Source of the DNA: an uncultured Gammaproteobacteria bacterium
GTDB lineage: Bacteria; Patescibacteriota; Microgenomatia; Daviesbacterales; UBA10151
Assembly (NCBI GenBank): GCA_964551605.1
Contig: CAZKCV010000003.1
Coordinates: 15,474-79,473 of the forward strand
Direction: 5' to 3'
Length of the DNA: 64,000 nucleotides
Below are positions 26,997 through 45,824 of this stretch, one piece after another. The notes beneath the pieces were generated by a model. It saw only the letters and a list, made by a program, of their open reading frames with translations, was not told the DNA's origin and made no database searches. The position numbers were made by a program, and so were the translations under genes. The number at the start of each line of letters is the position of its first letter. Position 1 is the stretch's first letter.

Positions 26997-27009
26997 TAAG
27001 CTGAGTATA

Positions 27010-27050: not shown

Positions 27051-28723
27051 GGTTCGATATTAAAGAAAGCAAAGCCGCTTTGGGGGATAGACATTCTGCC
27101 AGGTGCCCGCAAATTAAAGGCTTTCTTAAAATCAGCCCCGGATAAACTAACCCCCTCAATAGTCACCTGACTAGTATTGCCGTCACCTTGAATGACACTG
27201 ACAGAGATAGCTCCGGAAATCCCCCCGTATTTAGAAGCTACTGACCGCAGTTCATCCATACTGTAAGGATTCCCTCCCCAGCAGGAAGAAACCGGAGTCA
27301 CCCGGGAAGCCTCCTCGCTACTTCCTTTAATTAAAACTAAAGCAGCATTAACTATATCAGCCATTTCACTCCCATTAAGCCACGGATTACTCCTACCGCA
27401 TTTATCACTATTTACACTGTATCCTTGGGTATACCAGGCTTTATAAACCCAGGGGGAACCGCCGGCTTTTTCATAGGATTTATCAACAAAACTGGAGCCG
27501 CCGCCGCCGTCAGTAGTGTCCCAGCCCATCGATGGTATATAAACCCCATGGGTAGAAGCATAATAAGTCACCACGTCTTCAATGACCTGGCCGCGGGTGC
27601 TGTCTACTGCATCTTTCCAGGCCTGCGGCGGGCTGTCGGATTTGGATTTTGAATAGACCTGACAAGCTTCACTGGTACAAATGGCCTGGCCGTTTTGTTT
27701 ATACCGATAAGCATAAGTCCGGGCTGCCACAGCCTGGGCTTTTAATGCCTCCATATGCCAGCTGGAAGGCATCTCAGCAATGCCATATAAGTACTTTTCT
27801 TCAAAATTCATTGAACCATAACCTGAGACATTAATATCCCCACCGGTATCCTTACCCACCGGCTCTTTACCGTAATAGGCCCGTAAAATGGCTTTATAAT
27901 CCTGGCCAGACTGGGCCCGGCCCCGGGCTCCGTATTGGCTCATCCCTTTTCTGTGGGTATGGGCTCCGAAGGAAAAAACCGCAAAAGAACCCGAGGGAGC
28001 CGCTTCCCGGAAACCTTTAATAGAGGCATTATAATCATCTGCCAGCTCACTGTCCCCGATACTGGCGGTAAACTGGCCGGATCGGGCGGCTAAAATTTCC
28101 TGCTGCTTGGCGGAAAGTTCGGCAATTTTACCTGATAAATCAGATTGATAGGCTATAGCCTTTTTTATTTCTCCCCCCAAGAATGTCGCATTCTTATCTA
28201 CCTGCTCCTGAAAAGCAGCCAGTTTAATTTTATCTTTCTCCAGGCTTTCCTTATCTGTCAGAATACTCACTACTTCATTGCTGATACTTCTGATAATTTC
28301 CCGGTTTTGATTGATAGTTTTTAAGTGATAGAGTTTATCGGATAATCTGGATTGTCCCAGCAAAAAACCAATCGGATTATAGGAGTAAAGATTTTTATAA
28401 TCCTCTGCCACCCGTTCATTAAAGATAGCTGTCAGACCCACCAGGTTTTCTTCCCTGATATCAATTTCCTTTTGCTTTTTTTGGATATTCAAAGATAAAT
28501 TATTTAAGTTGGCCTGGATTTGAGCCAGTTGCAATTTCAAAGAGTTAAGCTGACCCTCTAAAGGCTTGGTGGCATTAACAGAAGATTCCCGGGCTTTATT
28601 TAATTCATTAATCTGATTTTGCAGATCCTCAATTTCATCTGCCCGGATAGGAGATGTAATGCCGGATAAAACCAGCAGAAAAAAGGTCAGTAGTAAAAGG
28701 AGGATTATCCTGGGCATGAGCAA
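27044..28723 (-). CDS. SpoIID/LytB-domain protein with signal peptide and N-terminal coiled coil
   Basis: 559 aa. Signal peptide; long heptad-rich segment (EIEDLQNQINELNKAR...); C-terminal AHTHRKGMSQYGARGRAQSGQDYKAILRAYYG matching the SpoIID/LytB signature. Confidence 0.65.
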   Translation of the reverse strand: MLMPRIILLLLLTFFLLVLSGITSPIRADEIEDLQNQINELNKARESSVNATKPLEGQLNSLKLQLAQIQANLNNLSLNIQKKQKEIDIREENLVGLTAIFNERVAEDYKNLYSYNPIGFLLGQSRLSDKLYHLKTINQNREIIRSISNEVVSILTDKESLEKDKIKLAAFQEQVDKNATFLGGEIKKAIAYQSDLSGKIAELSAKQQEILAARSGQFTASIGDSELADDYNASIKGFREAAPSGSFAVFSFGAHTHRKGMSQYGARGRAQSGQDYKAILRAYYGKEPVGKDTGGDINVSGYGSMNFEEKYLYGIAEMPSSWHMEALKAQAVAARTYAYRYKQNGQAICTSEACQVYSKSKSDSPPQAWKDAVDSTRGQVIEDVVTYYASTHGVYIPSMGWDTTDGGGGSSFVDKSYEKAGGSPWVYKAWYTQGYSVNSDKCGRSNPWLNGSEMADIVNAALVLIKGSSEEASRVTPVSSCWGGNPYSMDELRSVASKYGGISGAISVSVIQGDGNTSQVTIEGVSLSGADFKKAFNLRAPGRMSIPQSGFAFFNIEPK

Positions 28724-28779
28724 TTAATTTTAACATATCGGCTTGAGTTTTAAGTTGATCCCATGCTAAGCTTACCTTA

Positions 28780-30159
28780 ATGTCCAGAATCCTTTCTTCA
28801 AGATTTTTATTCCAAATCTTTAGTGTGATACTTTCCCTTTTTATACCCTTTTTAGCATCAGAAAAGGTGCTGGCTCAAAATGTTAATATTCGGTGTAGCG
28901 ACAATTTCCAAAAGTATATCCGGTCTGTTAATCTACCAGAAGAAGTTCGCCTCGGAGAAGCTTTTAATGTCAAAGTGGCGTTTACCTCCATTGCAGATAC
29001 TTCCTTAAATTATTATCTGAAATTCACTCAGCCAGGAACTCCACTGTTCGGCCAAAATATCGGTAATGCGGATTTCCGAACAGAGTGGCAACATATTAGT
29101 AACCCAGCAAATCCGGAAATTGATTTCAGTTTTGATAATCGCAACGATACTAGCCCAGGCACCTTCCAACTCAGCTTAATGTATACCACACGTAATTTCG
29201 ATAGAGAAGAAGAGGTATGTAAATTAGGCACTATTAATTTTGTCGAAAAAAACATGAATGAAATTACTTGTAATCTGAAAATGCCTGATAAGGTTGAGCA
29301 AGATAAACCCTTCACTATGAACCTGGATAAAGTTGATAAGCCCAATATCGAATATGCCTTCTATTTCTTTTCCAAAGGAGACATCGATATTAATAAATTA
29401 CCCAAAGGTATGGCAGTTGTTCAAACTGGTAGAAATTTAGCACCCATCTCGAAATTCACTCCCGGTAAAAATACACGCTACAGCAGTGGAGCACTGCCTT
29501 CAAATCCTTCCGGGTCAATTCCCATAACATATAGCAATAACGGAGGTGACCGACTTCGTGGAGGGGAATATATTGCTGTCATCGAAGCTAGAAGACTTCT
29601 AAACTGGAATCCTAGCTTCACTCTTACCGGAGATGACAATAAATGGCTGGTTTCTTACTGTAGTTACCACCCCTTTACCGTCAGCTCAGAACCTACCTCT
29701 GCGGAAACTGACGGGACAGCTATTGCCAAACCAGGGAAAGGTGGTACTTTAGGCGGAGAAGACCTCAAAACTGAAACTTGTTTGGAAAGATTAAGAAAAG
29801 ATCCTACTGCCAAGTGTGCAGAGGCAGGCGGAAAACAAATAAGCGGTTGCGGTGGCCAGGATGACCCAAGAGGACCGGCCATTGCCACTGCTATTGGCTG
29901 TATCCATACCAATCCTGTGGAATTTACTAAAGATATCATGAAGTTTGTTTTGGGTATTGCCGGTGGCCTGGCTTTCTTAATGATGCTGATGGGTGCTTTT
30001 CAAATTCTTTCTTCTGCTGATAACCCGGACACCTTAAAAGCCGGCAGAGAAAGATTAACCAGCGCTGTAATCGGACTTCTGTTAGTTATTTTTGCCGTCT
30101 TGCTGCTGCAAATAATCGGAATTGATATACTGCATTTGCCCGGATTCGGAAGATCATGA
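28780..30159 (+). CDS. large pilin-domain protein: signal peptide + ~370-aa extracellular domain fused to a C-terminal VirB2/TrbC-like pilin module
   Basis: The C-terminal 80 aa (FVLGIAGGLAFLMMLMGAFQILSSADNPDTLKAGRERLTSAVIGLLLVIFAVLLLQII) share the motif of the five small pilin genes downstream. Confidence 0.55.
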   Translation: MSRILSSRFLFQIFSVILSLFIPFLASEKVLAQNVNIRCSDNFQKYIRSVNLPEEVRLGEAFNVKVAFTSIADTSLNYYLKFTQPGTPLFGQNIGNADFRTEWQHISNPANPEIDFSFDNRNDTSPGTFQLSLMYTTRNFDREEEVCKLGTINFVEKNMNEITCNLKMPDKVEQDKPFTMNLDKVDKPNIEYAFYFFSKGDIDINKLPKGMAVVQTGRNLAPISKFTPGKNTRYSSGALPSNPSGSIPITYSNNGGDRLRGGEYIAVIEARRLLNWNPSFTLTGDDNKWLVSYCSYHPFTVSSEPTSAETDGTAIAKPGKGGTLGGEDLKTETCLERLRKDPTAKCAEAGGKQISGCGGQDDPRGPAIATAIGCIHTNPVEFTKDIMKFVLGIAGGLAFLMMLMGAFQILSSADNPDTLKAGRERLTSAVIGLLLVIFAVLLLQIIGIDILHLPGFGRS

Positions 30160-30182
30160 CAATATACAACATCAATTAACCT

Positions 30183-30600
30183 AATTAATCTAATTTCTAA
30201 TTTACCTAAAGAATGACTAATGACGAAATTACCAAAAAGTTTAACCTGGAAGATAGAACAGCTCTATTTGGAGAAAGTGTGATTAAATTTTGCCAAAAGA
30301 TATTCAGGGGACCTTTAACTGATCCTTTGATTATACAACTGGTAAAATGTGGCACCAGTGTAGGTGCTAATTATTGCGAAGCAGATGATGCAGAGAGTAA
30401 AATGGACTTTAAGCATAAAATAGGCATTTGTAAAAAAGAGGCTAGGGAAGCTAAACATTTTATCAGAATGGTTGTAATTGCAATACCTGCTTTAAAAGAA
30501 GAAGCCAAACCACTATGGCAAGAAGCGAAAGAATTAAACTTGATATTTAACGCTATTTATAAGAAAGTAAAATAAGGAAGAATTAATCTAATTTCTAATT
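30183..30600. mobile_element. putative insertion cassette: four-helix-bundle gene bounded by perfect 20-bp direct repeats (AATTAATCTAATTTCTAATT)
   Basis: Identical 20-mers at 30183-30202 and 30581-30600 flank the 30213..30575 CDS. An inverted partial copy (aattagaaatt) lies at ~30665-30675. Confidence 0.45.
30213..30575 (+). CDS. four-helix-bundle protein (23S rRNA intervening-sequence protein family, TIGR02436-like)
   Basis: 120 aa. LVKCGTSVGANYCEADDAESKMDFKHKIGICKKEAREAKHFIRM matches this family. Confidence 0.75.
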   Translation: MTNDEITKKFNLEDRTALFGESVIKFCQKIFRGPLTDPLIIQLVKCGTSVGANYCEADDAESKMDFKHKIGICKKEAREAKHFIRMVVIAIPALKEEAKPLWQEAKELNLIFNAIYKKVK

Positions 30601-30675
30601 ATTCTAATTGATCTAAACTTAGACATTTGATCATTGGGATTTATTTAGAAATTAGTAATTAAAAATTAGAAATTT

Positions 30676-30990
30676 ATGAAGCTAGCTCTAACCTTACCTG
30701 GCTCTAATAATATTGTTGATAGCCCTGTAAAAGAGAAGTTTACTGATCTCGCTGGTGTCCTAACCGGCATACTTAATATCGTCTTTTACCTGGCAGCCTT
30801 TATGGCTTTTTTCTATATCCTCTGGGGGGCATTTTCCTATATCAGCGCCCAGGGCAAAAAAGAAGATTTGGCCAAGGCCCGGGCCAGGATCACCTGGGCT
30901 ATAATCGGATTAGTGATTGTCTTTCTGGCCTTTATCCTCACCCAATTTATTGCCGAAGTATTTAAGCCGCAAGGAGGATTACCATTCTGA
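30676..30990 (+). CDS. VirB2/TrbC-like T4SS pilin paralog
   Basis: 104 aa with two hydrophobic helices and the shared loop motif GAFSYISAQGKKEDLAKARARITWAIIGLVIV. Confidence 0.6.
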   Translation: MKLALTLPGSNNIVDSPVKEKFTDLAGVLTGILNIVFYLAAFMAFFYILWGAFSYISAQGKKEDLAKARARITWAIIGLVIVFLAFILTQFIAEVFKPQGGLPF

Positions 30991-30992
30991 AA

Positions 30993-31022
30993 AAGGGTAC
31001 AGGGTACAGGGTACAGGGTACA
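30993..31022. repeat. tandem heptamer repeat (GGTACAG x4)
   Basis: gggtacagggtacagggtacagggtacag lies between two pilin genes. Confidence 0.5.
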
Positions 31023-31037
31023 GTTAAGAAAGCTTTT

Positions 31038-31406
31038 TTGGCTATAGTATTTTTTGTTTTGCTATACTACATGCCCACTCCTGCTTATGCTGCCTGTGTT
31101 GAACCGGGGAAAGGTGTCCGGATTAGCGACTGTTTCGGCTTTGGGGATGTTAAATCCGTAGGAGATGCCACCAACAGAGGAATTCCTGCCTTATTTGCCC
31201 TACTGGCAGCCATAGTGGTGGTATATTTTGTCTGGGGAGCTTTTAAGTTTATTTTATCCAGAGGGAATAAAGAAGCAGTAGCAGAAGCCAGAGGTATGAT
31301 TACCCATGCCATTATCGGTTTTATTCTATTAATCTTTGTTTTTGTGATCTTGCAATTTTTACTAAATAGCTTATTTAAGATACAATTTAGTATTATAGGA
31401 ACCTAA
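31038..31406 (+). CDS. VirB2/TrbC-like T4SS pilin paralog
   Basis: 122 aa; motif GAFKFILSRGNKEAVAEARGMITHAIIGFILLIFV. Confidence 0.6.
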   Translation: MAIVFFVLLYYMPTPAYAACVEPGKGVRISDCFGFGDVKSVGDATNRGIPALFALLAAIVVVYFVWGAFKFILSRGNKEAVAEARGMITHAIIGFILLIFVFVILQFLLNSLFKIQFSIIGT

Positions 31407-31411
31407 ACTAT

Positions 31412-31840
31412 ATGCGAATTTTACAGATTGTACTGCTGGGAATTTTTTGTCTTTTTGTTTTCGTACCTAGAACTTTAGCTATCGACCCTCCATGTCAGCC
31501 GGACGACAAAAGGGTGGAATGCGTTTTTGGCACCATATCTGCTCCCCCTCCTTTGGCTGAGTTTCTAAAAGATGATCCGACCGGGGCCGGAGCAATCAGT
31601 AATTTTTTATCTAACCTGGTAGCCTTATTTTTTACCTTGGCAACTATAGTGGCATTGTTTATGTTTCTGTGGGCAGCAATTGAATGGATGACTTCCGGCG
31701 GGGAAAAAGAGAAAGTTGCCTCAGCCCGCAATAAAATCATCTATACCATTATTGGTATAGTCCTTTTGGCCACAGCTTTTGCCATTCTTAACATAGTAGG
31801 CATATTTACCGGCTTTACTTTCTTTGCCGGTCAAAAGTAG
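31412..31840 (+). CDS. VirB2/TrbC-like T4SS pilin paralog
   Basis: 142 aa; motif AAIEWMTSGGEKEKVASARNKIIYTIIGIVLL. Confidence 0.6.
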   Translation: MRILQIVLLGIFCLFVFVPRTLAIDPPCQPDDKRVECVFGTISAPPPLAEFLKDDPTGAGAISNFLSNLVALFFTLATIVALFMFLWAAIEWMTSGGEKEKVASARNKIIYTIIGIVLLATAFAILNIVGIFTGFTFFAGQK

Positions 31841-31883
31841 TCACTTGACAAGTGCTTTATGATGCGGATATAGTTAAACTAGA

Positions 31884-32273
31884 ATGAAAAAATTAGCTGT
31901 TATTGGAGCCGGAATTACCAGCCTCTTAACACCGGTCAAAGCTTTCGCGCAAGGAACGGTAGTGATCCAACCCCCACCAGGCAAAGGATTCCCCTCATTA
32001 TCCAATTTTATCCAAAATGCCCTATTGTTAGTTTTTACAGTCGGGGCTTTCATTGTCTTGCTGATGTTAATTATCGGAGCATACGAGTGGATGACTTCCG
32101 GCGGCGACAAAGAAGCCGTCGGTAAAGCCAGAAACAGGATCATTAATGCCTTGATTGGCTTAGTAATATTAGCTATCGCCTTTGCTCTAGTCAACCTGAT
32201 TGGTGTATTCACCGGCTTAAATCTTAGAAATTTGACAGTACCTGGTCCTGCGGCAACCGATACCAATCTTTAA
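31884..32273 (+). CDS. VirB2/TrbC-like T4SS pilin paralog
   Basis: 129 aa; signal-like N-terminus; motif GAYEWMTSGGDKEAVGKARNRIINALIGLVILAIA. Confidence 0.6.
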   Translation: MKKLAVIGAGITSLLTPVKAFAQGTVVIQPPPGKGFPSLSNFIQNALLLVFTVGAFIVLLMLIIGAYEWMTSGGDKEAVGKARNRIINALIGLVILAIAFALVNLIGVFTGLNLRNLTVPGPAATDTNL

Positions 32274-32322
32274 AACTGTTACCTGCATTGATCTTCAAGG
32301 ATATCCATGATAAGTTTAAGTA

Positions 32323-32643
32323 ATGGGACCTCCTCCGGCCGGTTTAACTGAACTGGAAAATTTAGTAGCAAATGTAATCTCGGTAATAGTAGCCCTGGGA
32401 TTTATTGCCATGTTTGTGACGCTGATCATGGCCGGATTTAAATACCTAACCTCCGGCGGTGAACCCAAAGCCATCCAGACCGCTCACCATACCTTATCCT
32501 GGGCCATTTTAGGCATCTTACTTATGATCGTAGCCTGGATACTGTTACAGCTTATCCAGGCCTTTACCGGAATAGAAGTAACCGTGTTTAACATCAAAAC
32601 ACTTTGTAAAAATGCCGCAGGAGCCTTGTCATTTTGTCCGTAA
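32323..32643 (+). CDS. VirB2/TrbC-like T4SS pilin paralog
   Basis: 106 aa; motif AGFKYLTSGGEPKAIQTAHHTLSWAILGILLMIVA. Confidence 0.6.
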   Translation: MGPPPAGLTELENLVANVISVIVALGFIAMFVTLIMAGFKYLTSGGEPKAIQTAHHTLSWAILGILLMIVAWILLQLIQAFTGIEVTVFNIKTLCKNAAGALSFCP

Positions 32644-32701
32644 CCCACCCCCGGACCGTAAGGGGTTGCAAAAATGGATTGGTTTGGGTTAGTGTTAAAG
32701 T

Positions 32702-34480
32702 ATGACTGCCCTGAGTAGAATTAAGGATTTAGAATTAGGAATTAAACTTTTCATACCTTTATTCTTTATTCTTATTGCTTTATTCTTACCCAACCCTGCC
32801 TTTGCCCAAACCGCTTCCTCAAGTGCTGCAGCTCTAGCGCCTGCCACCTATAACCTACCACCTACCGTCTCCCCTGTTTCCCCGCTTTATACTGACCTGT
32901 TAGTAAATAATATGTTCCATACTTTTTCCTGCCTGGCTATTGGCCAATCAATCATCGGCCAGCCTTGTTTAACTTATCAACTAACCCAAAATGCCCAAGG
33001 CATGCTGCAAGGAGTGCCGGTTCTTTCCCAGACTAATTTATCAGGAGGGGCTTTAGGCGGCGTCACTTCCGTAATAGGCATGCTATACACCAATCCGCCG
33101 GTTCGGACTGCCGATTATTTAGCCAGCGTAGGAGAGGGTTTAGGTGTAGTCAAACAGGCTCATGCCCAAGGGGTAGGCGGTTCCGGAGCGGCAGTTCTAA
33201 ACCCCATCCTAAAACTCTGGCAGGTTTCCCGGAATATTTCTTATGTCATACTCATTCTTATCTTTCTGGTAATCGGACTGATGGTCATGTTTAGGAATAA
33301 AATCAACCCACAGACAGTTATCACAGCCCAAACAGCTTTACCGGGACTGGTAATCGGCCTGGTCATGATTACATTTTCCTACTTCTTTGCCGGCCTGATT
33401 TCCGATTTGGCCTTTGTAGGGACAAATGTTGTAGGTTTTTATTTTACAACCGCACAGAATAAGCCACCCGAAGATTTAACACAAAAAATCTCAGGTAGTA
33501 ATATCTTGAATATCATGGGCTCGCTTACAGGAATTATCGAAAGCGGAGATGTTGCTAGCTTTTCCGGCATACTGTTTGACTCTCTCGGTGGTGAAGCCCA
33601 AAAAGCCATCCGGATCTTGGTATTTTGGCTGAGTTCCCAGTTCGTATCAGGCTTAATACCAGACGTAGGAGGAACCGGTAATGCTTTGACACCCTTAATA
33701 AAACCCATTGCCGGTATTATCACAGGAATAGCAACAAATGCCATGATTTCTCCCCTGCTGGGACAATTTTTAAGTCTTGCTGCAGCTTTAGCCTTAGTCT
33801 ATCAACTACTCAAACTACTATTTAAGTTAATTATGACCTGGCTGACAATTATTTTTTTAACCATCATAGCACCATTTCAGTTTCTTTTTGCCTCCTTGCC
33901 GGGCAGACAAGGAATGGCTACCGGTTGGATGCTAAACATGTTGGGTAACATCCTAGTGTTTCCGGCTGTTATAGCTGTAATTTATTTTGTCGCTTTTTTA
34001 CTGGGTCCTAGATTTGCAGCCAACTGCCCCAAAGATAATACTGGTTCTTGTCTGATTCAAATTTCTGCTGTTAACCAACAAGATGATAGTATTTTAGCAG
34101 CACCAGTATACGCAGCGGATAGTAATGATGTAATCGGAACTCATGCTTTCCCTTTATTTGGGGGAATGGATTTAAGTTGGATTCAAATATTACTGGCTTT
34201 TGGGGCCTTAATGGCATTACCGGCAATACCTGATATAATAGTAAGAACTGTTGGAAAGGCAGGACAAGCAGGACAAATGATTGGACAAGAAGTTGTGGGT
34301 GGCGGCAGAACCGGCCAGGGTTTTGCCCAACGGAGCTATAGCTCAGGTATCCAAACCGGACAGACCTGGAAAACAGGTCTCCTTGGTGAAACACAAGTTT
34401 TGCCGTCAGGCGACACTAAGGTAGTAAAACGCGGTCTATTTAGAAATGTCTACGGATGGGGAGTGGGGAGGAAACCTTAA
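32702..34480 (+). CDS. VirB6/TrbL-like polytopic inner-membrane T4SS component
   Basis: 592 aa with a signal peptide and at least six TM segments separated by loops. It sits directly after the pilin array, as in VirB/Trb operons. Confidence 0.5.
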   Translation: MTALSRIKDLELGIKLFIPLFFILIALFLPNPAFAQTASSSAAALAPATYNLPPTVSPVSPLYTDLLVNNMFHTFSCLAIGQSIIGQPCLTYQLTQNAQGMLQGVPVLSQTNLSGGALGGVTSVIGMLYTNPPVRTADYLASVGEGLGVVKQAHAQGVGGSGAAVLNPILKLWQVSRNISYVILILIFLVIGLMVMFRNKINPQTVITAQTALPGLVIGLVMITFSYFFAGLISDLAFVGTNVVGFYFTTAQNKPPEDLTQKISGSNILNIMGSLTGIIESGDVASFSGILFDSLGGEAQKAIRILVFWLSSQFVSGLIPDVGGTGNALTPLIKPIAGIITGIATNAMISPLLGQFLSLAAALALVYQLLKLLFKLIMTWLTIIFLTIIAPFQFLFASLPGRQGMATGWMLNMLGNILVFPAVIAVIYFVAFLLGPRFAANCPKDNTGSCLIQISAVNQQDDSILAAPVYAADSNDVIGTHAFPLFGGMDLSWIQILLAFGALMALPAIPDIIVRTVGKAGQAGQMIGQEVVGGGRTGQGFAQRSYSSGIQTGQTWKTGLLGETQVLPSGDTKVVKRGLFRNVYGWGVGRKP

Positions 34481-34490
34481 ATTAAAGTAA

Positions 34491-37400
34491 TTATTTTGCC
34501 AGAATTGCCCGCCTCATTAATTCAGTCAAAAGCGTCCCATCCTGACCAAAGTAGTTCTCCTGTTTGCTCAACGGTGTCTTAGCTGTAAACGGTTCAAGCA
34601 CTGCCCTTATTAAAGGCATATTGATATTATAAACTGATTGTCCCTCAGGATGCGCTACCGCCCAATAAGCCATTCTCCTAATAGCAGTATCGCCGCTAAA
34701 TTTAGCTGCTAAAGGTACCTGGGAAGCAGTACCAACAAAGGCTAGGCTATTTCCGTAAATTGTCACCCTCTCCCATCTGTTTTCTATTTCGTCTATAGCT
34801 TTTTCATAGTCCCCTGCTTCTAATTTATCCCATTTCCTTTTTGACATAAGCCACAAAGACGAACTTTCGCTCTCTAGTCCTGAGTTGGATTGTGCAAGAG
34901 TATAATTATTTCTCCCAATAGTTTTGACTATTTTTTTGAAAATGCCCTCAAAATTAGGATTCTGGCCGACTTGCCCGCCGATTAAAACCGGACGGACTGC
35001 TTCTGCGCCCTTGGCTGCCTCTAACCAGCGCTCGGTCTGCAATTCATCCATGGCACCACTAAAATCTACTTCATAATCAAACCCGTGCGTCCTAAAGCCA
35101 TTATAAGTAGAAATAATGCCCCTTAATCCTCTGCTGCCGATACTATGATCTAAACCTCTGAAATTAGATTCCAGATATTTCAGAAAACCCCTACCACGGG
35201 CAGCCTGACCACGGTTCCATAAAGTCCAAAACCGCTGTTCAATCATCCTTCTGCCAATAAAAGGTGTGTTTCGGCGATTTTCCACATATTCTGCTTCCAC
35301 TTCCCCGTCTTTATACAAATCAGGCTGGTAAAAAGCCCCGAAAACTTTCACACTATCTACTGCAAAACAAAACCTTCTCTGGGTTTCCTGAGCCCGGAAG
35401 ATTCGTTTCCTTTTTTCATCGGGATCAGAAATGCCTTTTAATAAAGTATTATCCGGATCAATCAATCGTCTGGTTCTGGCCGGGTAGGTATTATAATGAG
35501 GGTGATCAGAGTTATAGGCGGCAGCGGTGATTTCCTGCGACATCAACAAGCTGCTGTAATTTTGATCATCAGTCATGGAAAAATTATACTGCGGATCAGC
35601 ATCTTCCCGATTGATAATATCGCGATAGCCAACAGAAGCTCTTTTTTGTGTTTCTCCCTTATGAACACTCAGAACCTGCTTATCTCTGGCAGCTTGTCTG
35701 CTGGCAAAATTAATCGGTAGTTGACTTTGAATTATTTCATTTTGGATTATTCCATCTATATCAGCAACAGTTAAATCACTTCCTTTTTCTTTTAATTTTT
35801 CCAAAACTTTTTCCTGAATGTCTTCCACTGTTTGAACATAAGTCGCATATTGTTGTTCTTCTTCTGTCAAAGTAATTAATCTTAATGACTCTTGGGCATT
35901 CTTCCCTAATTCACTGTCTTTTCCTTTATCACTGATCACCTTGTTAGATATTTTTCTAAATTCCAATTTATCAGCTATATCCACATATCTTAAACCGGCT
36001 CCCTCTTTGGTAGCAGAGGTAATTGCTTTGGCAATAGTTTCGGGCAAACTGGCGATGGCTCTTTCCCTGACAAATTTATTCAGGCGGACCACATCATTAT
36101 ATGCAAGTAATTCACCTTTACCCTTGCCGGGTATCTCATGCTTGGTGATCAGCAAGGCGCCGGCTTTTTCCGCACTGATGAAAAATACGTCTCTGGTCTT
36201 AATTGCCAAATCAACTGCCTGCCTGGCCCGGGAAATTTCCGGAAACATACGCAGTTCTTTCTCTGTTAATTTACCGCCATCTTCTAGTTTTTTAAGTAGC
36301 TCATCTCTAGCCAAAAATTGCCTTTCAGTTTCGCTTAGCTGTTCATTATTATTGTGCTTTAGCCATAATTCTGCTACTTTAGCATCATAGCCTGCCTTCG
36401 ACCCAAAACCCGCATATTCTGTGTAGAGACTTCTAAATTGTCTATCTGTCTGGTCAATTACTACCAGTTCCTCGGTTTTTTGATAAGGTCTAATCCGATC
36501 TAAAATCAGCATTTTTTTCTCTATATCCGTTAACTGATCTGTCACTGTGACAGTTTGGGGATCTTTTTGGTTTAAAGCCTTTAATTTATCATTAATTCTT
36601 TTTATTTCATCTAAATATTGGGAATTCTGGAATAACCTTGTAACAGAAAGGGGTTGATTAGTAACAGGATCAATGGCGTTTCTGTCAAAACCAAATCCAT
36701 CAATTTGCGTCTCAATACCGACAAAGTTTTCTCTGATTACCGTATCGATATCTTTAAGCTGTGACAAGGCAATTCTGACTTCTAATCTACGGCGCTCTTT
36801 TGCCCGATCAGACCATAATACTTCATCGTTTTGTCCGCTTGGATCTGAAAGAAATTCGGCCGGCCTGGAGAATTTATCATATTCTTCATCATTATCTAAA
36901 ATATCTGCCGCATGCATCACTTCGGCTTCATGAGCTTTGGCAATAGCATTTAACCTAATATTAATATGCTTACCGATTTCTGAAGTGATCTGGTGCCACT
37001 CAGGCACATTCCAACGGACAGCAAAATGATCAGATACATTAACCAATAAAGTGCCTTGTGCCCTAGCCACTTCACTAGATATCCTCTCTTCTTCCATTCC
37101 CATTTGACGGCCGGTACGCTGAATCTCCTCATTTAATCCGTAAGCATCCTGCCTCATTTGATCGGGCGTAAAAGTACTGCTTTCGCTGGTAGCAACCTGC
37201 AGAAAATGATCAATTCCTTTGACAATTTCCTCAGGAGTCCTGCCGGTTAAAACGATCCTGCCCCAACTTCTATCCCAAAATGGGTTTTTTTCGCGCTGCT
37301 CGTTTAATCTCTCATCTTCTCTGGTTCTGATTGACTCTATCAATCGATCACCTATTTCTGTAGGAGATAAAGCAACTCCTTTGAAAACTTTTTCTAGGGC

Positions 37401-38090
37401 TAAAGCCACCTTTGGAGCCAAGTAAGTTGCCACCCCCTTATGGCGCGCTTGCAAACCAGATAGATTCGGATCATTGTAGTCCCAAAATCTTTCCTGATAA
37501 TTATCCAGGGCCCCATGCACCATTGTAATTCTATCTGCATATGTTCGCCGAGATTCAGCGCCATGTTCATCCCGGTAACGGGAAGTAGACTCGGCCATCA
37601 CTTCCCTATACAACTGACTAATCTCCCCATAAAAGTGCCTTAAGGCGCCGCTATTGTTTGCATCATTAATTAAATCATTTATTTCCCGCTCATTTTGCCG
37701 AACTAAAGCATCGTATTCTGCTTGTCGGTCAATCCCTTGAGCCGGATCAACCGGAAGCTTATTACGGTCAACTTTGGCCAATTGTTTCTGGCGGTCAACT
37801 GCCAACTCAAACTCTGAAAGAGCGGGAGGTTTTTCCACTTGAGCCTGCAGGATCCATTCCGGTTCTCCGGCGCCGCCGGCTACCTTAGGAAAGCGGCGTA
37901 CTTCTTTTGCGAGGCCGGTTGTTGAATCGATCTGCAGTGGATCAGCAACAATAACATAATTACCTTCCTGCCGCGTTTGATAATCTTCCCGCTTCGGGTC
38001 ATACCCCCCCTCTTTGATCACCCCTTGAGAGGGTACTTGCGTAGGATTAACAGCCGGTGTATTTTCTGCCATACTTTCTATTCTAGTCAT
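34491..38090 (-). CDS. large (1199 aa) soluble hypothetical protein within the T4SS-like island
   Basis: Long uninterrupted ORF with no TM segments and no P-loop or relaxase histidine triad. Charged, coiled-coil-rich middle section and a Gly/Arg-rich C-terminal domain. Confidence 0.6.
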   Translation of the reverse strand: MTRIESMAENTPAVNPTQVPSQGVIKEGGYDPKREDYQTRQEGNYVIVADPLQIDSTTGLAKEVRRFPKVAGGAGEPEWILQAQVEKPPALSEFELAVDRQKQLAKVDRNKLPVDPAQGIDRQAEYDALVRQNEREINDLINDANNSGALRHFYGEISQLYREVMAESTSRYRDEHGAESRRTYADRITMVHGALDNYQERFWDYNDPNLSGLQARHKGVATYLAPKVALALEKVFKGVALSPTEIGDRLIESIRTREDERLNEQREKNPFWDRSWGRIVLTGRTPEEIVKGIDHFLQVATSESSTFTPDQMRQDAYGLNEEIQRTGRQMGMEEERISSEVARAQGTLLVNVSDHFAVRWNVPEWHQITSEIGKHINIRLNAIAKAHEAEVMHAADILDNDEEYDKFSRPAEFLSDPSGQNDEVLWSDRAKERRRLEVRIALSQLKDIDTVIRENFVGIETQIDGFGFDRNAIDPVTNQPLSVTRLFQNSQYLDEIKRINDKLKALNQKDPQTVTVTDQLTDIEKKMLILDRIRPYQKTEELVVIDQTDRQFRSLYTEYAGFGSKAGYDAKVAELWLKHNNNEQLSETERQFLARDELLKKLEDGGKLTEKELRMFPEISRARQAVDLAIKTRDVFFISAEKAGALLITKHEIPGKGKGELLAYNDVVRLNKFVRERAIASLPETIAKAITSATKEGAGLRYVDIADKLEFRKISNKVISDKGKDSELGKNAQESLRLITLTEEEQQYATYVQTVEDIQEKVLEKLKEKGSDLTVADIDGIIQNEIIQSQLPINFASRQAARDKQVLSVHKGETQKRASVGYRDIINREDADPQYNFSMTDDQNYSSLLMSQEITAAAYNSDHPHYNTYPARTRRLIDPDNTLLKGISDPDEKRKRIFRAQETQRRFCFAVDSVKVFGAFYQPDLYKDGEVEAEYVENRRNTPFIGRRMIEQRFWTLWNRGQAARGRGFLKYLESNFRGLDHSIGSRGLRGIISTYNGFRTHGFDYEVDFSGAMDELQTERWLEAAKGAEAVRPVLIGGQVGQNPNFEGIFKKIVKTIGRNNYTLAQSNSGLESESSSLWLMSKRKWDKLEAGDYEKAIDEIENRWERVTIYGNSLAFVGTASQVPLAAKFSGDTAIRRMAYWAVAHPEGQSVYNINMPLIRAVLEPFTAKTPLSKQENYFGQDGTLLTELMRRAILAK

Positions 38091-38177
38091 AAATTCCTTT
38101 CTCTGGCAAGTTTATACAATACGATCTTTAACTGCTTGATTAAATTCTAATAAAATCCTGACGAAGTGCTTCTTAAA

Positions 38178-39110
38178 TTAGCCGCATCTTTTGACAGCTC
38201 TGCATTTGGGACAACTATCCCCGGCCCTGACTATACAATTTATTTCTTCTTGGCAAATCGGACATACCCGGCAAAAATCAGAGTCTTTACCGCTGGAACC
38301 TGATGAACCCCCATAAGAAATAGCGTTTTCCGAAACAACCTGAAAGCCGGTTCTGCCACCACTACCAGATCGCGGCGGACAACTGCCACCCTGTAAGCCC
38401 AGTATTTGCATAACGGCCTTTTTTGCCTCATCTGAATAAGATAATCTCGAATCAGTAAAAAACTGTTTTTGGACCATTGCAGCCCGCCTCAAGGCTTCTT
38501 TTTTATATTCTTTATCTTCCCCATTTCTGATCATTGTCCAAACTTTGGGAGCATCAATTAATTTTTCCAGAATATCAACCCAGGATTTTTTCTCTTCATC
38601 TAAAATTAAAGGGGTCGCCCTGATCCCGTCTGAACTCCGAAATATAGGTTTATTAAGGCTAAAGCTGGTTAAATTCCAGGCAAATTTCATACACTGCTCT
38701 TCATTAAAATCCAGCACAATCGCCCGGTTAAATACTTTTTTAACTCCTGCTTCATAAATAATTTCCTGAACAATTATCTTAGAAGTAGGATAAACCCCTG
38801 CTTTTGGCGGACTAATCCAAATAGAAGCCCCTTTTTTATTAGCAGCAGCCCATTGTTCGTTTGCTAATACAGCCTGATATTCTAGTTGCCCCAACAGACT
38901 GGTTTTATCATCAATAGTAGCTTTCACCAGACACTGACCGATCGGCGAGAATAATTCTCCGCTTGCTGTAATCGAATAAAAATAAGGATCAGGAATCCGG
39001 TAAGTCTCTTGGCTTAAAGAAGCCAGATATTCAGCAAATTGCGCGGCGGTGGTGTTTCGTAAACCGGGAATATTTTCGGTAGCCGTTCGCTCTTGTTCTA
39101 ATACTGGCAT
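38178..39110 (-). CDS. hypothetical protein with C-terminal 4-Cys zinc ribbon
   Basis: Preferred start is MPVLEQ (39110), preceded by a GGAG Shine-Dalgarno. The C-terminus reads CRVCPICQEE...CPKCRAVKRCG. A Gly/Ser-rich linker precedes the Zn ribbon. Confidence 0.5.
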   Translation of the reverse strand: MPVLEQERTATENIPGLRNTTAAQFAEYLASLSQETYRIPDPYFYSITASGELFSPIGQCLVKATIDDKTSLLGQLEYQAVLANEQWAAANKKGASIWISPPKAGVYPTSKIIVQEIIYEAGVKKVFNRAIVLDFNEEQCMKFAWNLTSFSLNKPIFRSSDGIRATPLILDEEKKSWVDILEKLIDAPKVWTMIRNGEDKEYKKEALRRAAMVQKQFFTDSRLSYSDEAKKAVMQILGLQGGSCPPRSGSGGRTGFQVVSENAISYGGSSGSSGKDSDFCRVCPICQEEINCIVRAGDSCPKCRAVKRCG

Positions 39111-39454
39111 ATAACTCCTGCTCGGGATAAAAAATTGTGGTCGGTCTCCTGACTTTACCCTTCGATTCCACTCAGGGTTATAACAGTTGCGGCACAGTCT
39201 CTGATTTACACAGAGTTCCCTTAAGAGCGAAGCTTGCAAGCTCCGCTTATTGTACTTTGAGTTCAATTCTGAACCTAGTACACCACCATCCCAGCATAGC
39301 CGGAGAATTATCAATTTTCAAGTCCCAATTTTCTCCACTGATTTAATCTGATCTTGTCCGAATTGATCTGTTTTGTGCCGCTTGCCAATACTTTTTTCAC
39401 GTTGTATAACAGTGATGAGTTCGTAGTTGGTAGTTCGTAGTACTAAGTTATAAA

Positions 39455-39823
39455 ATGACTAACTTCAATTTTCAAAACCTGAGCGTCTATAAAAAATCCC
39501 TGGATTTTTGTGAGCAGATTTATCAAACTACAAAGACATGGCCTAAGGAATACTCGTTTGATATAACAAGCCAACTAAGAAGAGCTTCGCTGTCAATATC
39601 TTTAAATATAGCAGAAGGCACAAGCAGGACGAAAAAGGAATTCAGCAGGTTTCTTGATATTGCCCGTGGTTCATGTTTCGAATGCGTTGCATTAATAGAA
39701 ATAGGTGTGAAATTAACCCTTATAGAAAATACTCTGAAAGCTAGATTTCTCATGGATCTAGAAGAATTATCTAAAATGCTTTCCGGTCTTAAGAAATCTA
39801 TGAACTATGAACTCAAGGCGTGA
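39455..39823 (+). CDS. four-helix-bundle protein (23S rRNA IVS protein family), second copy
   Basis: 122 aa. NLSVYKKSLDFCEQIYQ...LRRASLSISLNIAEGTSRTKKEFSRFLDIARGSCFECVALIEI matches TIGR02436-type proteins. Confidence 0.75.
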   Translation: MTNFNFQNLSVYKKSLDFCEQIYQTTKTWPKEYSFDITSQLRRASLSISLNIAEGTSRTKKEFSRFLDIARGSCFECVALIEIGVKLTLIENTLKARFLMDLEELSKMLSGLKKSMNYELKA

Positions 39824-39845
39824 AACGCCGTACTAATAACAAACT

Positions 39846-40904
39846 ATGGATGCCCACCCTATCCCTCAAAACGTAACCTCTTTCCAATTCAAACTGGTAG
39901 GAGATATGACCTTGAAGCAATTTGCCTACCTGGCTACCGGTGCCGCCGCCGCTTACATTACCTTTGTATTTTTTACCAAAGACTACCCTTTTTTTGCCTG
40001 GCCTCTGACAATTTTATTTGCCGGCTCAGGAGCAGTCTTTGCCTTTTTGCCGATCGGTTCCCGCCCCCTGGATTATTGGACCAAGGCTTTCTTAAAGGCC
40101 GTTTACTCACCCACCAAAAGAGTCTGGAAGAAAAACGGAAAAACCTTCAGGGATGATCCTTTATTTAAGAGCCGGCTGGCTATGTATCTGGCCGGGACAC
40201 AACTGCCTCAACCGATAATTGATAATCCGCTGCTGGCTCCAGCGGAAAACGGCAAGCCAAAGACGGAAGACATTTCTTTACCCCTGGTTAATAAACCCGG
40301 CCCACCACTCCCCACGCCGGACGCTTTGAAAAAAACCGTGGACCTGGCCAGGGAGGCCCAACAAGTCCAGATGCAAATCATTCAAACAGAGAGAACCCTT
40401 TCCCAAATCAAATCCCAGGCTCAAAAACCCACTCCCATTCCCGTAGACTATAGCCAGCAGGTTAATAAGGTTTTATCTGACTTACAGGGCCTGATGAGCC
40501 ATGCCTCAGAGGTCAAGCAACAAATTCAAACTATCCAGACACCGCCACAAAAGGCTCCGGAAAGCATCCCGGCAGTCAGCCGGGAAAAAGTTAAAGTGGT
40601 AGCTTCACAAAAGGCTCAACCAGTGCCTATCACCTTAACCACCTTTCCGAATGTAATTAATGGCATTGTCAAGGATAAAAGCAATAATTACCTGGATGGT
40701 GTGGTGGCCGTTATCTATGATAAAGATGGTCTGCCGGTTAGAGCACTGAAAACTAATAAATTAGGCCAGTTTACCGGCTCCACCCCGCTTTTGGACGGAA
40801 CTTATACTTTGGAACTGGAAAAAGAAGGCTTTACCTTTGATGTTTTACAAATTGAATTAGCAGGACAAGTCATGCCGCCGCTGACGATTACGGCTAAGGG
40901 ATAA
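39846..40904 (+). CDS. membrane protein with two N-terminal TM helices, Pro-rich linker and C-terminal beta-sandwich (carboxypeptidase-regulatory/Big-like) domain; possible VirB3/VirB8-analogous T4SS component
   Basis: 352 aa. TM helices (LATGAAAAYITFVFF, FAWPLTILFAGSGAVFAFL); C-terminal region NGIVKDKSNNYLDGVVAVIYDKDGLPV...GTYTLELEKEGF. Confidence 0.4.
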   Translation: MDAHPIPQNVTSFQFKLVGDMTLKQFAYLATGAAAAYITFVFFTKDYPFFAWPLTILFAGSGAVFAFLPIGSRPLDYWTKAFLKAVYSPTKRVWKKNGKTFRDDPLFKSRLAMYLAGTQLPQPIIDNPLLAPAENGKPKTEDISLPLVNKPGPPLPTPDALKKTVDLAREAQQVQMQIIQTERTLSQIKSQAQKPTPIPVDYSQQVNKVLSDLQGLMSHASEVKQQIQTIQTPPQKAPESIPAVSREKVKVVASQKAQPVPITLTTFPNVINGIVKDKSNNYLDGVVAVIYDKDGLPVRALKTNKLGQFTGSTPLLDGTYTLELEKEGFTFDVLQIELAGQVMPPLTITAKG

Positions 40905-40914
40905 TACCAATACA

Positions 40915-41655
40915 ATGAACACTACACAACAACATCTGGCTGTTAGGGATATTCACGGTGACATTCTGATTCTCAAAGACGGCGGAGGCGCCCTGGTGCT
41001 GCAGGTTTCAGCTGTTAATTTTGGCTTGCTTTCCGAACGTGAACAGATGGCCATTATCCAAAGTTTTGCCCAAATGCTTAATTCGTTATCTTTTAGCCTG
41101 CAGATTGTCATTCATTCCGAAAGGCTTAACTTAAGCTCTTATCTGACGCTTTTGGAAAAAGCCCAAAAAGCTCAGACTAATCCGCTGCTGTCGCAAATGA
41201 TTACCGACTATAAACAATTCATACAAAGTGTAGTTAAAGACATGGAAGTACTGGATAAAAAATTTTATATTATCATTCCTCTGTTTAGCATAGAACTAGG
41301 TCTAACTGCCTCCAAAGCTAATTTAGAACAAAAAATTAAAACCGTACTCACGCCCAGAAAAGATCAGGTCATCAGACAACTGCAGCGGGTAGGACTGCAG
41401 GCTGTTCAATTAGACAAAGCAAAATTAATTGAGGTTTTCTATGATATCTATAACGGAGAACAAATCCAGCCGGCTGAATCAGTTCAACTACAGGACCTGG
41501 CAGTCAGGCTCAAAAATCCGCAACCCAGTCAAGCCGGTCCGCAAGCCAATATACCGCCACCTATCCAACAACCCACTCCTCAACCAGTTCAGGCACCAAC
41601 TGCCACCCAAACAGCAAGAAACCATCCTTTTATTGTAGAGGAGCTGGAAGCATGA
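40915..41655 (+). CDS. VirB4/TrbE N-terminal domain protein (split from the ATPase domain)
   Basis: 246 aa. LAVRDIHGDILILKDGGGALVLQVSAVNFGLLSEREQMAIIQSFAQMLNSL matches the VirB4/TrbE N-terminal pattern. Ends in a Pro/Gln-rich tail and overlaps the next ORF by 4 nt (ATGA). Confidence 0.5.
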   Translation: MNTTQQHLAVRDIHGDILILKDGGGALVLQVSAVNFGLLSEREQMAIIQSFAQMLNSLSFSLQIVIHSERLNLSSYLTLLEKAQKAQTNPLLSQMITDYKQFIQSVVKDMEVLDKKFYIIIPLFSIELGLTASKANLEQKIKTVLTPRKDQVIRQLQRVGLQAVQLDKAKLIEVFYDIYNGEQIQPAESVQLQDLAVRLKNPQPSQAGPQANIPPPIQQPTPQPVQAPTATQTARNHPFIVEELEA

Positions 41656-43409
41656 AACTACCAAGTTTACTTAAAAAAACAAAGCAAACTGATCCGGCGA
41701 TTCCTCAGTTAACTCTGGAGGATGTTCTGGCACCGGCTGAACTGGAAGTAGATTTTAACTACCTAAAAGTAGACGGCCGCTTTTTCAGAACCTATTTTGT
41801 GTCTAATTATCCCCGCTATGTTGATCCCAACTGGCTGGAGCCGTTAATTTCCTTTGACCATACCCTGCTCATTTCCATGTTTATTTATCCTTCCCAATCA
41901 CAAGGGGTGCTGGATGAGCTTAAACGCAAGGTAGCTGAGATGGAAGCCACCATCCAAACAGACCTGGAGCGGGGCCGGGCTATTGACCCGGCAGTAGAAG
42001 TCGCTTTAGAAGATGCCAGGGGCTTGCAGGACCAGCTGGTCAGGGGGGTAGAGCGGTTTTTCCAGTTTGGTCTCTATATTTGTGTACCGGCTGCTTCCCT
42101 GGAAGAGCTGCAAAATACTTCCAAGCTCGTGGAATCTACTTTAGCGGCTCTTTCCATTACCGCCAAACAGGTCATCTTGCAAATGGAGGACGGGTTTAAG
42201 TCCTGCCTGCCCCAGGGTCAGGATTTATTAAACCTAAACCATAATATGGACACCACCTCCCTGGCTACTACTTTTCCCTTTGCCTCATCAGAATTGACTG
42301 CCAACGAAGGTATTATGTACGGAATTAATGAGCATAACGGCTCGCTGATTTTATTTGACAGGTTTAGTTTGGAAAACTTTAATTCAGTTATTTTTGCCAA
42401 AGCCGGGGCCGGCAAATCATACTTTGTAAAACTGGAGGCCTTAAGATCATTAATGTTCGGAGCGGAAATTATCGTCATTGATCCTGAACAGGAATACCTA
42501 CCCCTCTGCCAGGCAGTCGGAGGTGAATATATTAACTTTTCCGCCTCATCACCGGTAAAAATCAATCCCTTTGACATGTCAGGCGAACTGGTACCCGGGG
42601 AAAATGAGCTGGGCCGAAAAATCTTATCTTTAACCAGCTTCTTAAGGATTGTTTTAGGCAACTTAAACGCCCAGGAAACAGCGGTTTTAGACCGGGCCCT
42701 AAAACAAACCTATCAATTAAAAGGCATTACTGATAATCCGGAAACCCAAAATAAAATCCCGCCCTTAATGGAGGATTTATATAAAGTCTTAATCGGGATG
42801 GAAGAAGGCCCGACCATGGAGCTGGCTGCCAGATTAGAGCGCTTCATTAAAGGCTCATTGACCGGTATTTTTTCTGCCCACTCCAATATTGACCTTAAAA
42901 ATTCCTTTACTGTCTTTTCTGTCCGGGATTTGCCGGATCAGCTGCGGCCCTTAGCCATCCATATGATTTTGGAATATGTCTGGACCAAAATCAGGGGGAA
43001 GCTTAAAAAAAGATTATTAATCGTAGATGAAGCCTGGTATTTAATGAGAAACCAGGATTCGGCTGACTTTTTAGTGGATATGGCCAAAAGGGCCAGGAAA
43101 TATTATCTGGGGCTAACTACTATTACTCAGGATGTCGAGGATTTTCTGGCCACTGAGCGGGGCAAGGAAATTATCTCCAACTCCTCCATCCAGGTACTCT
43201 TAAAACAAGCTCCGGCTTCTATTGACCTTTTGGCGGAAGTTTTTAATTTATCAGAAGGGGAACAAAGGCTGCTCATGTCAGAAGGAGTAGGTGAAGGAAT
43301 ATTCTTTGCCGGTAATACCCATGTCGCTATGAGGGTGGTGGCCTCCTCCAACGAGCATGAATTAATTACCACCAGCCCCCAGGAGATCCTGGCCAGACAA
43401 GAAGAATAA
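41652..43409 (+). CDS. VirB4/TrbE-family T4SS ATPase (central and C-terminal ATPase domains)
   Basis: 585 aa. Walker A FAKAGAGKSYFVK, Walker B RLLIVDEAWYLM, and a VirB4-like mid region (RTYFVSNYPRYVDPNWLEPLI). Confidence 0.8.
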   Translation: MKLPSLLKKTKQTDPAIPQLTLEDVLAPAELEVDFNYLKVDGRFFRTYFVSNYPRYVDPNWLEPLISFDHTLLISMFIYPSQSQGVLDELKRKVAEMEATIQTDLERGRAIDPAVEVALEDARGLQDQLVRGVERFFQFGLYICVPAASLEELQNTSKLVESTLAALSITAKQVILQMEDGFKSCLPQGQDLLNLNHNMDTTSLATTFPFASSELTANEGIMYGINEHNGSLILFDRFSLENFNSVIFAKAGAGKSYFVKLEALRSLMFGAEIIVIDPEQEYLPLCQAVGGEYINFSASSPVKINPFDMSGELVPGENELGRKILSLTSFLRIVLGNLNAQETAVLDRALKQTYQLKGITDNPETQNKIPPLMEDLYKVLIGMEEGPTMELAARLERFIKGSLTGIFSAHSNIDLKNSFTVFSVRDLPDQLRPLAIHMILEYVWTKIRGKLKKRLLIVDEAWYLMRNQDSADFLVDMAKRARKYYLGLTTITQDVEDFLATERGKEIISNSSIQVLLKQAPASIDLLAEVFNLSEGEQRLLMSEGVGEGIFFAGNTHVAMRVVASSNEHELITTSPQEILARQEE

Positions 43410-43424
43410 TGATAATCTAAACTT

Positions 43425-45742: not shown

Positions 45743-45824
45743 GCGTATGGTGAATAGCGTACAGCGTATAGTTAAAGAAAAATTATGCGCTTACAACTAT
45801 ACCCTAAACGCTATACGCTAAACC

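Follow-up and report, generated by a model that had tools for sequence, protein, structure and literature searches.

Within the 64,000 nucleotides (nt) of contig CAZKCV010000003.1 analysed here (the window), a conserved chromosomal locus resembling a type IV secretion system (T4SS) adjoins dnaN and dnaA. It contains a gene for a very large orphan protein, which we call the giant (34491..38090, minus strand), in tandem with a smaller gene, gene A (38178..39110, minus strand), whose leader is predicted to be a cobalamin riboswitch. We suggest that the giant is best explained as a lineage-specific, soluble and mostly helical protein that would act as a partner dedicated to the chromosomal T4SS-like machine of Daviesbacteria and yet strongly variable. 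The window stems from a genome of Candidatus Daviesbacteria type (Microgenomates, Patescibacteria), the named homologues and the related genome records being those of Daviesbacteria or Patescibacteria. An initial annotation had described the giant as encoded ‘antisense’ within a T4SS-like ‘island’ and had proposed it as a secretion substrate or effector. Its assignment to the T4SS-like locus holds, the same slot being occupied in Daviesbacteria and related Microgenomates, but the two labels have to be abandoned: the giant overlaps no gene but stands by itself on the minus strand, converging on 32702..34480, and the locus is a conserved part of the chromosome rather than an island.

The reading frame of the giant is uninterrupted from ATG 38090 and encodes 1199 residues, or 1193 if translation starts at ATG 38072 (Met7). 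As the initial annotation stated, it is the largest in the window (the runner-up has 958 residues) and lies on the strand opposite to the pilus genes, the pilin, PrgI/TrsD-like and VirB4 genes all being on the plus strand. Comparison with its 78%-identical relative P0002 (locus L092) yields non-synonymous and synonymous rates (dN and dS) of 0.127 and 1.11, respectively, and a dN/dS ratio of 0.115 over 1187 codons, comparable to the ratio of 0.086 for the adjacent membrane-protein gene (32702..34480). On account of this ratio we count the giant as a genuine coding gene; that it is functional and under purifying selection is well supported.

The encoded protein is acidic (net charge −19) and soluble, with a single cysteine (0.08%) and not one hydrophobic segment of 19 residues, and regular-expression scans detected no Walker A, HUH, 3-His, HExxH or CxxC motif in it, so that the reported absence of transmembrane (TM) segments, a P-loop and relaxase motifs is confirmed. 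The low-complexity N-terminus and the Gly/Arg-rich C-terminal stretch that had been described are likewise recognizable: residues 1-60 contain many polar residues (Ser/Thr/Asn/Gln) and Pro, Gly is enriched to 12-17% in residues 961-1080, and GRRMIEQRFWTLWNRGQAARGRGF (residues 946-969) falls within the best-conserved block of the family. The supposedly elevated GC content is no anomaly, with a value of 0.424 for the giant compared to 0.411 in the whole window and 0.39-0.45 across the pilin genes, and horizontal acquisition, as far as it would be read from GC, is ruled out.

Searches of Pfam, NCBIfam, PHROGs and PADLOC returned no family match for the giant, and a giant profile compared with the sequences of the PDB found nothing credible. 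A scan of a genome collection with the giant's own peptides gave no match, a word-indexed protein search with an alignment of 14 giant sequences recovered known close relatives only, and an exhaustive profile search with its conserved 935 residues against 1.84 billion representative proteins yielded 12 relatives, the full-length ones having 950-1590 residues. On the level of sequence comparison, the giant is thus an orphan outside every described family and without housekeeping homology, in agreement with its initial classification. Three further assignments were rejected: a relaxase or VirB4/VirD4-type ATPase, for which motif scans, Pfam and NCBIfam were all blank; VirB6 or another integral membrane T4SS subunit, given zero TM segments in the window protein; and a protein built from internal repeats, as a BLAST comparison of the giant with itself returned the identity match alone.

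Slot conservation and cassette exchange

A PrgI-anchored scan provided 80 loci from Daviesbacteria and related Microgenomates. A giant-type soluble protein is found in the same slot, with a length of ~1100-1760 residues in most loci and of 530-880 residues in distant lineages, and wherever the locus has enough flank, this slot has the PrgI-VirB4 block on one side and the VirB6-like/pilin block on the other. Gene A is its upstream neighbour in most loci. The gene order is the same in L004, L006, L008, L010, L011 and loci taken from GTDB, and hardly any locus has the slot empty while PrgI identity falls from 72% down to ~33%. In 44 loci the giant stands tail to tail with a protein having 7-11 TM segments, and in nine more it is intact or cut by the edge of the locus; 39 of the 44 paired giants are devoid of TM segments, and the other five have one hydrophobic segment each. 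Disruption or absence of the reading frame in relatives, which the initial annotation had named as the outcome that would speak against its proposal, did not materialize: among the loci in which a giant was identified, it is fragmented only in L016 (MFDZ01000028.1), where one class-I protein is distributed over three consecutive reading frames of 591, 169 and 531 residues (1642-5583, minus strand), which would make it a pseudogene unless the assembly is in error.

The conservation of the slot is not matched by that of the sequence that fills it. Comparison of the window with L004, L006 and L008 shows identities of 86-89% for VirB4, 64-71% for PrgI, 56-70% for gene A and 57-62% for the VirB6-like protein, whereas the giant of the window has no BLASTP match to the giants of the same three loci; the more distant L010 (VirB4 78% identical) encodes a giant that is 33% identical over 202 residues. 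Overall, the identities of the giants and those of PrgI show no correlation (Spearman 0.14). Single linkage of phmmer matches places 29 of 47 giants, including those of the window, L012, L019 and L022, in one family, which at E < 1e-30 splits into many classes. It is thus well supported that the giants constitute one very old and very divergent family composed of deep, barely alignable classes. On the nucleotide level, blastn similarity to L004, L006 and L008 ends at 38178 and resumes at ~34340. Since similarity breaks off at gene borders, and since the classes ignore the phylogeny of the flanking genes, the view that the giant is exchanged between lineages as a cassette, together with its own 5' region, is well supported. 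The giant may hence be called replaceable, its flanks being 56-89% identical and its classes not following the phylogeny of the core genes.

The 5' region that would travel with the giant has conserved features of its own. The motif CGTCAGGATTTTATTAGAATTTAATCAAGCA (38133..38163, minus strand), followed by GTATAAACTTGCC, aligns in the window, L092, L093 and L003, where together with a subsequent GAAAGG it precedes the giant regardless of the upstream gene, and the same arrangement is seen in several GTDB loci. In the window, GAAAGGA at 38101..38095 resembles a Shine-Dalgarno sequence for ATG 38090. A promoter-like TTGCCA-18-TAGAAT (38080..38109, minus strand), which matches at 10 of 12 positions and is the top minus-strand site in 34000-39900, overlaps codons 1-4 of the long reading frame; 7 nt separate the end of its −10 box from ATG 38072, and the identical sequence is kept in L092. 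Transcripts from this candidate promoter could begin at Met7, with a short leader or none. In at least 40 loci, across otherwise unalignable classes, the giant begins with the conserved peptide M-A-x-I/P-E-R/N-x-M-A-E-G (window 38072-38090). Met7 may therefore be the true start, with the conserved peptide lying partly in the 5' untranslated region, or the giant may have two starts; the peptide, in turn, may be a recognition signal or may be the by-product of a Shine-Dalgarno sequence or −10 box that is conserved for the Met7 start.

The interval between gene A and the giant is an insertion hot spot for same-strand genes of toxin-antitoxin and abortive-infection type, of which the window has none. 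Inserts were located in L003 (7263-9766), L004 (10919-11763), L006 (10957-12794), L008 (10931-12561) and L093 (33-1187), and the families encountered are RHH/PIN, Phd/PIN, RelB/ParE-like, HicB, AbiEii and an AAA_14/DUF4143 ATPase. The gathering of such genes in many genomes, along with the swapping of the giant and its 5' region, would also be expected if the giant were itself an accessory or selfish cassette, for defence, exclusion or addiction, that sits in a recombination hot spot of the T4SS locus and plays no role in secretion. However, the 5027 defence-system models of PADLOC-DB identified no family for the window giant, gene A or five other giants, five classes of giants being covered, a tblastn search of plasmids and phages with the giant found no relatives, and a slot that is filled in nearly all loci is unexpected for a dispensable cargo gene. 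We consider a selfish cassette quite unlikely.

A diversity-generating retroelement would be another conceivable source of the variability, in particular as the locus has two PF05635 genes, one of them weakly bAvd-like, and L004 has one annotated as PF22296. No template/variable repeat pair of at least 25 nt involves the giant, the repeats in 26000-46000 are all short and attributable to chance, no reverse transcriptase is among the genes examined in 26-46 kb, and the divergence spans the whole giant and not a C-terminal variable region. For this window, the retroelement is effectively refuted.

Gene A and its predicted cobalamin riboswitch leader

The leader at 39259..39122 (minus strand) matches the cobalamin riboswitch aptamer of Rfam (RF00174) with 39.9 bits, compared to a gathering threshold of 31.5, and an E-value of 1e-6; including the P1 helix, the riboswitch probably extends over ~39288..39137. 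It contains the core GGGAAC-hairpin-CUGUGCCGCAAC at 39226..39180 and the B12 box AGUCAGGAGACC. The aptamer is followed, with a spacing of 12 nt, by AGGAG and ATG 39110 of gene A, and a UCCCG at 39127..39123, just 5' of the Shine-Dalgarno sequence, is kept 2-3 nt upstream of that sequence across loci. Directly upstream of the riboswitch lies a promoter-like TTGAAA-17-TATGCT (39293..39321, minus strand), which is kept in L003 and altered in L004, L006 and L008. At the same place, Rfam riboswitch matches of 44-67 bits occur in 12 other loci, that is, in L003, L004/L005, L006, L008, L010 (as AdoCbl-II, RF01689) and seven further ones. Long, short and AdoCbl-II-type peripheral elements alternate at one riboswitch position.

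A covariance model of our own, R1, which represents the 47-nt riboswitch core, was searched over 84 sources comprising 1.49 Mb (E < 1e-4). It scores 65.9 bits on the riboswitch of the window and has exactly one match per locus in 50 of the 80 species-representative loci, and none elsewhere in the 1.49 Mb. All matches are on the strand of gene A and, except in L041, between PrgI and the first minus-strand gene. Within the core helix, four of five pairs covary, 99.3% of the cells are paired, and none of 500 shuffles reaches the observed score. In L011, L027 and L052, PrgI faces the giant directly, with neither gene A nor a riboswitch there, and L057 has a gene A homologue and no riboswitch match. 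Judged by score, core, covariation and position, the predicted element at 39259..39122 is a regular member of the cobalamin riboswitch class: it shares with leaders assigned to RF00174 and RF01689, for example that of btuB, the B12 box, the GGGAA/GCCGCAAC core, the covarying helix and the location in the 5' untranslated region ahead of a Shine-Dalgarno sequence. Unlike in those leaders, nothing recognisable connects the controlled gene with B12 transport, B12 synthesis or a B12-independent isozyme, and this gene is located inside a T4SS-like locus; a full-text search of the literature found no paper linking cobalamin riboswitches to Patescibacteria or to T4SS function.

A mechanically listed reading frame of 378 residues (TTG 39314) traverses the aptamer, and the real gene A is hence taken to be 39110..38178, encoding 310 residues. 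Its AlphaFold model, with a predicted local distance difference test score (pLDDT) of 83.8, comprises a weakly PAS-like alpha/beta core, a helical domain, a disordered linker, in which an invariant GSCPP motif is located, and a C-terminal four-Cys zinc ribbon. The protein is judged cytoplasmic on the basis of its Cys content (3.2%). A word search identified 57 homologues, and among the reading frames directly behind the riboswitch, which have 278-581 residues, 39 of 48 fall into one BLAST family. Pfam and NCBIfam gave nothing beyond weak zinc-ribbon or HypA-like matches for gene A, the metallochaperone family HypA being weakly matched by 6 of 37 members, and PHROGs, PADLOC and PDB sequence profiles gave nothing credible. 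From the stop of gene A it is 87 nt to ATG 38090 of the giant, with no terminator-like site predicted in between.

Cobalamin riboswitches usually precede genes for B12 transport, B12 synthesis or B12-independent isozymes, and they usually switch expression off when B12 binds. Conceivably, gene A and the giant are a module for cobalamin starvation, made when B12 is scarce, which, together with the T4SS-like machine, captures or imports corrinoids of the host or offsets their lack. Such a module would be in line with a riboswitch heading the pair in 50 of 80 loci, with the Cys-rich nature of gene A, its invariant motif and its HypA matches, and with nutrient uptake having already been proposed for the T4SS of Patescibacteria (PMC11665869). 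Nevertheless, the search for known B12-binding domains or motifs was negative for gene A as well as for the giant, the similarity to HypA is probably due to the zinc ribbon alone, some lineages have the giant but no riboswitch, a promoter of the giant's own is the usual case, and no B12-dependent enzyme was seen within the 64-kb window. A dedicated starvation module is, in our assessment, unlikely.

The surrounding locus

The convergent neighbour of the giant (32702..34480, plus strand) encodes a polytopic membrane protein of 592 residues with seven TM segments predicted by a TM scan; it has no Pfam match, and its topology and position suggest that it is a candidate VirB6 analogue. The corresponding partners in the 44 loci have 470-640 residues and 7-11 TM segments. 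Further upstream on the same strand, Pfam identifies six T4SS_pilin genes (PF18895, VirB2-like; 28780..32643, plus strand), while PrgI (VirB3-like), a TrsD/TraC-like protein and a VirB4-like ATPase are encoded at 39846..43409 (plus strand), divergent from the unit of riboswitch, gene A and giant.

A survey of chromosomal, relaxase-less Patescibacteria T4SS loci related to the conjugation systems of monoderms (MPF-FATA-like) left genes without profile matches unassigned, found VirB6 to be scarce in Microgenomatia, and cited the variable VirB2 paralogue arrays of Bartonella and Anaplasma (PMC12102498). The window conforms to the locus type described there in having PrgI/VirB3, TrsD, VirB4 and a VirB2-like pilin array beside dnaN/dnaA, and in having no relaxase motif, but the giant, gene A, the riboswitch and the VirB6-like candidate with 7-11 TM segments are not described in that survey. 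For one Patescibacterium tested, the T4SS-like system was essential for epibiotic growth, its role being called completely unknown (PMC11665869).

Several further observations were made in and around the locus. Following VirB4, a protein of 624 residues with one TM segment and no Pfam match (43425-45299, plus strand) is 75% identical to its counterpart in L004 and 30-42% identical over 110-200 residues to those in L006, L008 and L010, which makes it a second variable component of the T4SS-like locus. The genes dnaN and dnaA are on the minus strand (45825-48860), and the GC skew changes sign at ~48 kb, which places the replication origin ~3-10 kb from the T4SS locus. Two 23S_rRNA_IVP genes (PF05635; bAvd-like four-helix bundles) are present, at 30213-30575 and 39455-39823 (both plus strand). 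The first is inserted behind the first pilin gene and is exactly bracketed by 27-nt direct repeats that are 89% identical (30183-30209 and 30581-30607), as if it were a small mobile cassette; similar plus-strand reading frames of 120-130 residues lie just upstream of PrgI in many loci and are annotated as IVP in L004, L010 and L011-type contexts. More remote from the T4SS locus are a histidine kinase with an N-terminal MEDS sensory domain (PF14417, E 1e-45; 1455-3179, minus strand) and a tRNA-Asn(GUU) gene (11929-12195, minus strand) whose anticodon loop is interrupted by a 194-nt group I intron; the intron matches Rfam Intron_gpI with 69.1 bits at 11958-12169, and the tRNA was found by the intron mode of ARAGORN and missed by its default mode. 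Finally, the record titles of many typical Daviesbacteria loci (among them L013, L018 and L024) read ‘uncultured Gammaproteobacteria bacterium’, and one reads ‘Bathyarchaeia archaeon’; these are probably mislabels.

A possible role of the giant at the T4SS-like machine

Proceeding from the view of the giant as a dedicated partner of the T4SS-like machine, we tentatively propose, as the preferred reading but a possibility rather than an expectation, that it is a cargo or specificity protein of this machine, that it has been diversified by host-side partners, and that it works with gene A and is damped when B12 is plentiful. Its destination could then be the cell surface or the host bacterium, and encounters with partners on the host side would drive its diversification. 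Gene A would partner it, for example, as an adaptor or chaperone. With plentiful cobalamin, the riboswitch would stop the translation of gene A, the Shine-Dalgarno sequence being 12-25 nt past the aptamer and after the UCCCG; from the likeness to other cobalamin riboswitches, we infer that this shut-off may operate through a long-range contact. Read-through of the riboswitch transcript, which is possible in the window owing to the 87-nt gap without a terminator, may also feed the giant, in addition to the giant's own candidate promoter.

Translocation as cargo would be compatible with the divergence between lineages, the low Cys content, the acidic character, the absence of TM segments and export signals and the conserved N-terminal peptide, and to this extent the initial proposal of a substrate or effector stands; what it does not find is a conserved C-terminal signal, and the tail-anchor-like helices of distant lineages (see below) suggest a cytoplasmic protein associated with the machine no less than an effector. 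Effectors of type III and type IV secretion systems can pair with a small adjacent gene for a chaperone or adaptor, as in the case of VirE2 with VirE1. The giant and gene A resemble pairs of this kind, by analogy, in that a secretion locus encodes a large soluble protein lacking a Sec signal and, in tandem with it, a smaller cytoplasmic one; they differ in that they exhibit neither homology nor a recognised translocation signal, and in that gene A, with its 278-581 residues and zinc ribbon, far exceeds classical chaperones in size. Variable determinants of specificity in conjugation include the variable regions of TraG/VirB6 and the Eex proteins of entry exclusion. As with these determinants and the VirB2 arrays, one component occurs in sharply distinct variants on an otherwise conserved machine, which is consistent with partner recognition, but what varies in the present locus is a giant soluble protein in its own right, and most pairs of variants are unalignable.

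A number of findings weigh against a riboswitch-linked cargo protein. To begin with the structure, AlphaFold2 calculations for the full giant (six sequences) gave an all-helical fold with a pLDDT of 41, too low to be of use. Further, no coupling protein or coupling ATPase was found among the scanned genes of the locus, and the riboswitch platform has no conserved local hairpin that would hide the Shine-Dalgarno sequence. The C-termini, too, differ between giant classes and exhibit no common translocation signal of T4SS type: the class of the window ends in ...TLLTELMRRAILAK, while some others end in basic tails rich in W/F. Most giants, moreover, have a promoter-like TTGACA-17-TATGCT of their own with an inverted repeat, found on the minus strand in L012 (~7740), L013 (7981), L015 (7751), L020 (7703), L022 (6694), L027 (9600), L035 (6689) and L040 (7219) and absent from the window. 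Its −10 box lies within the left arm of the 13-14-nt inverted repeat, GGAAGTTCTATGC...GCCATAGAATTTCC or, in other classes, CCAAAGCCCTAAAC...TCCATAGGTTTTGG. Wherever this promoter is present it precedes the giant, and L033 and L038 have one copy more, located farther upstream but still on the giant side of gene A. The repeat could be an operator or an RNA hairpin; gene A is unlikely to be its binder, as L027 has the repeat without gene A. Given these promoter candidates, control of the giant by the riboswitch is unnecessary, and it is likewise not required by the many genomes in which toxin-antitoxin modules part gene A from the giant.

Also to be counted here is the finding that the same-slot proteins of distant lineages end in a membrane-anchor-like helix, hydrophobic in the Gottesmanbacteria-like representatives (L078, L082, L084) and amphipathic in the forms with 560-870 residues. 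Such helices favour a cytoplasmic protein bound to the machine, and thus the giant may be a membrane-peripheral structural or gatekeeping part which is not transported at all; it could, for example, be a scaffold or substrate receptor that replaces a locus-encoded coupling protein and docks to the VirB6-like channel. The amphipathic basic helix TLLTELMRRAILAK at the C-terminus of the window giant agrees with this alternative, as do (i) the fixed tail-to-tail placement beside the VirB6-like gene in at least 44 loci, (ii) the retention of the giant in loci that have neither gene A nor the riboswitch (L011, L027, L052), and (iii) a purifying selection within classes that is as strong as that on the membrane partner. 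Yet the core machine is 56-89% identical between genomes whose giants cannot be aligned, and allele classes moving independently of the core would be unusual for an obligate subunit. In addition, the last ~60 residues of the VirB6-like protein, a fast-evolving tail rich in Gly, Gln and Arg, do not covary with the class of the giant (median identity 23% vs 22%). On balance, we regard a structural or gatekeeping part as somewhat unlikely.

Whichever role applies, the riboswitch and the gene pair headed by it, which the initial annotation had overlooked, are the most informative feature of the neighbourhood, and the locus of Daviesbacteria gains three conserved elements that had not been described: riboswitch-controlled gene A, the giant, and a candidate VirB6 analogue. 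Being the sole component that is exchanged as very different alleles, the giant is the likeliest seat of host or partner specificity. The riboswitch, an RNA sensor of a well-understood kind, connects the locus with cobalamin as a small-molecule signal in a context that is newly reported here, and this link leads to testable predictions for expression, secretion and host association that are approachable by experiment. It also represents a native ligand-controlled switch for organisms that are short of inducible expression tools. In a more far-reaching and rather improbable scenario, the T4SS-like machine of these ultra-small, host-dependent bacteria would as a whole be wired to B12, with corrinoid shortage freeing gene A and a swappable giant to act, by way of this machine, on the host bacterium; the module would then extract corrinoids or other nutrients, or would switch between attached and free states. 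If this were true, the allele classes of the giant would mirror the host range of these bacteria.

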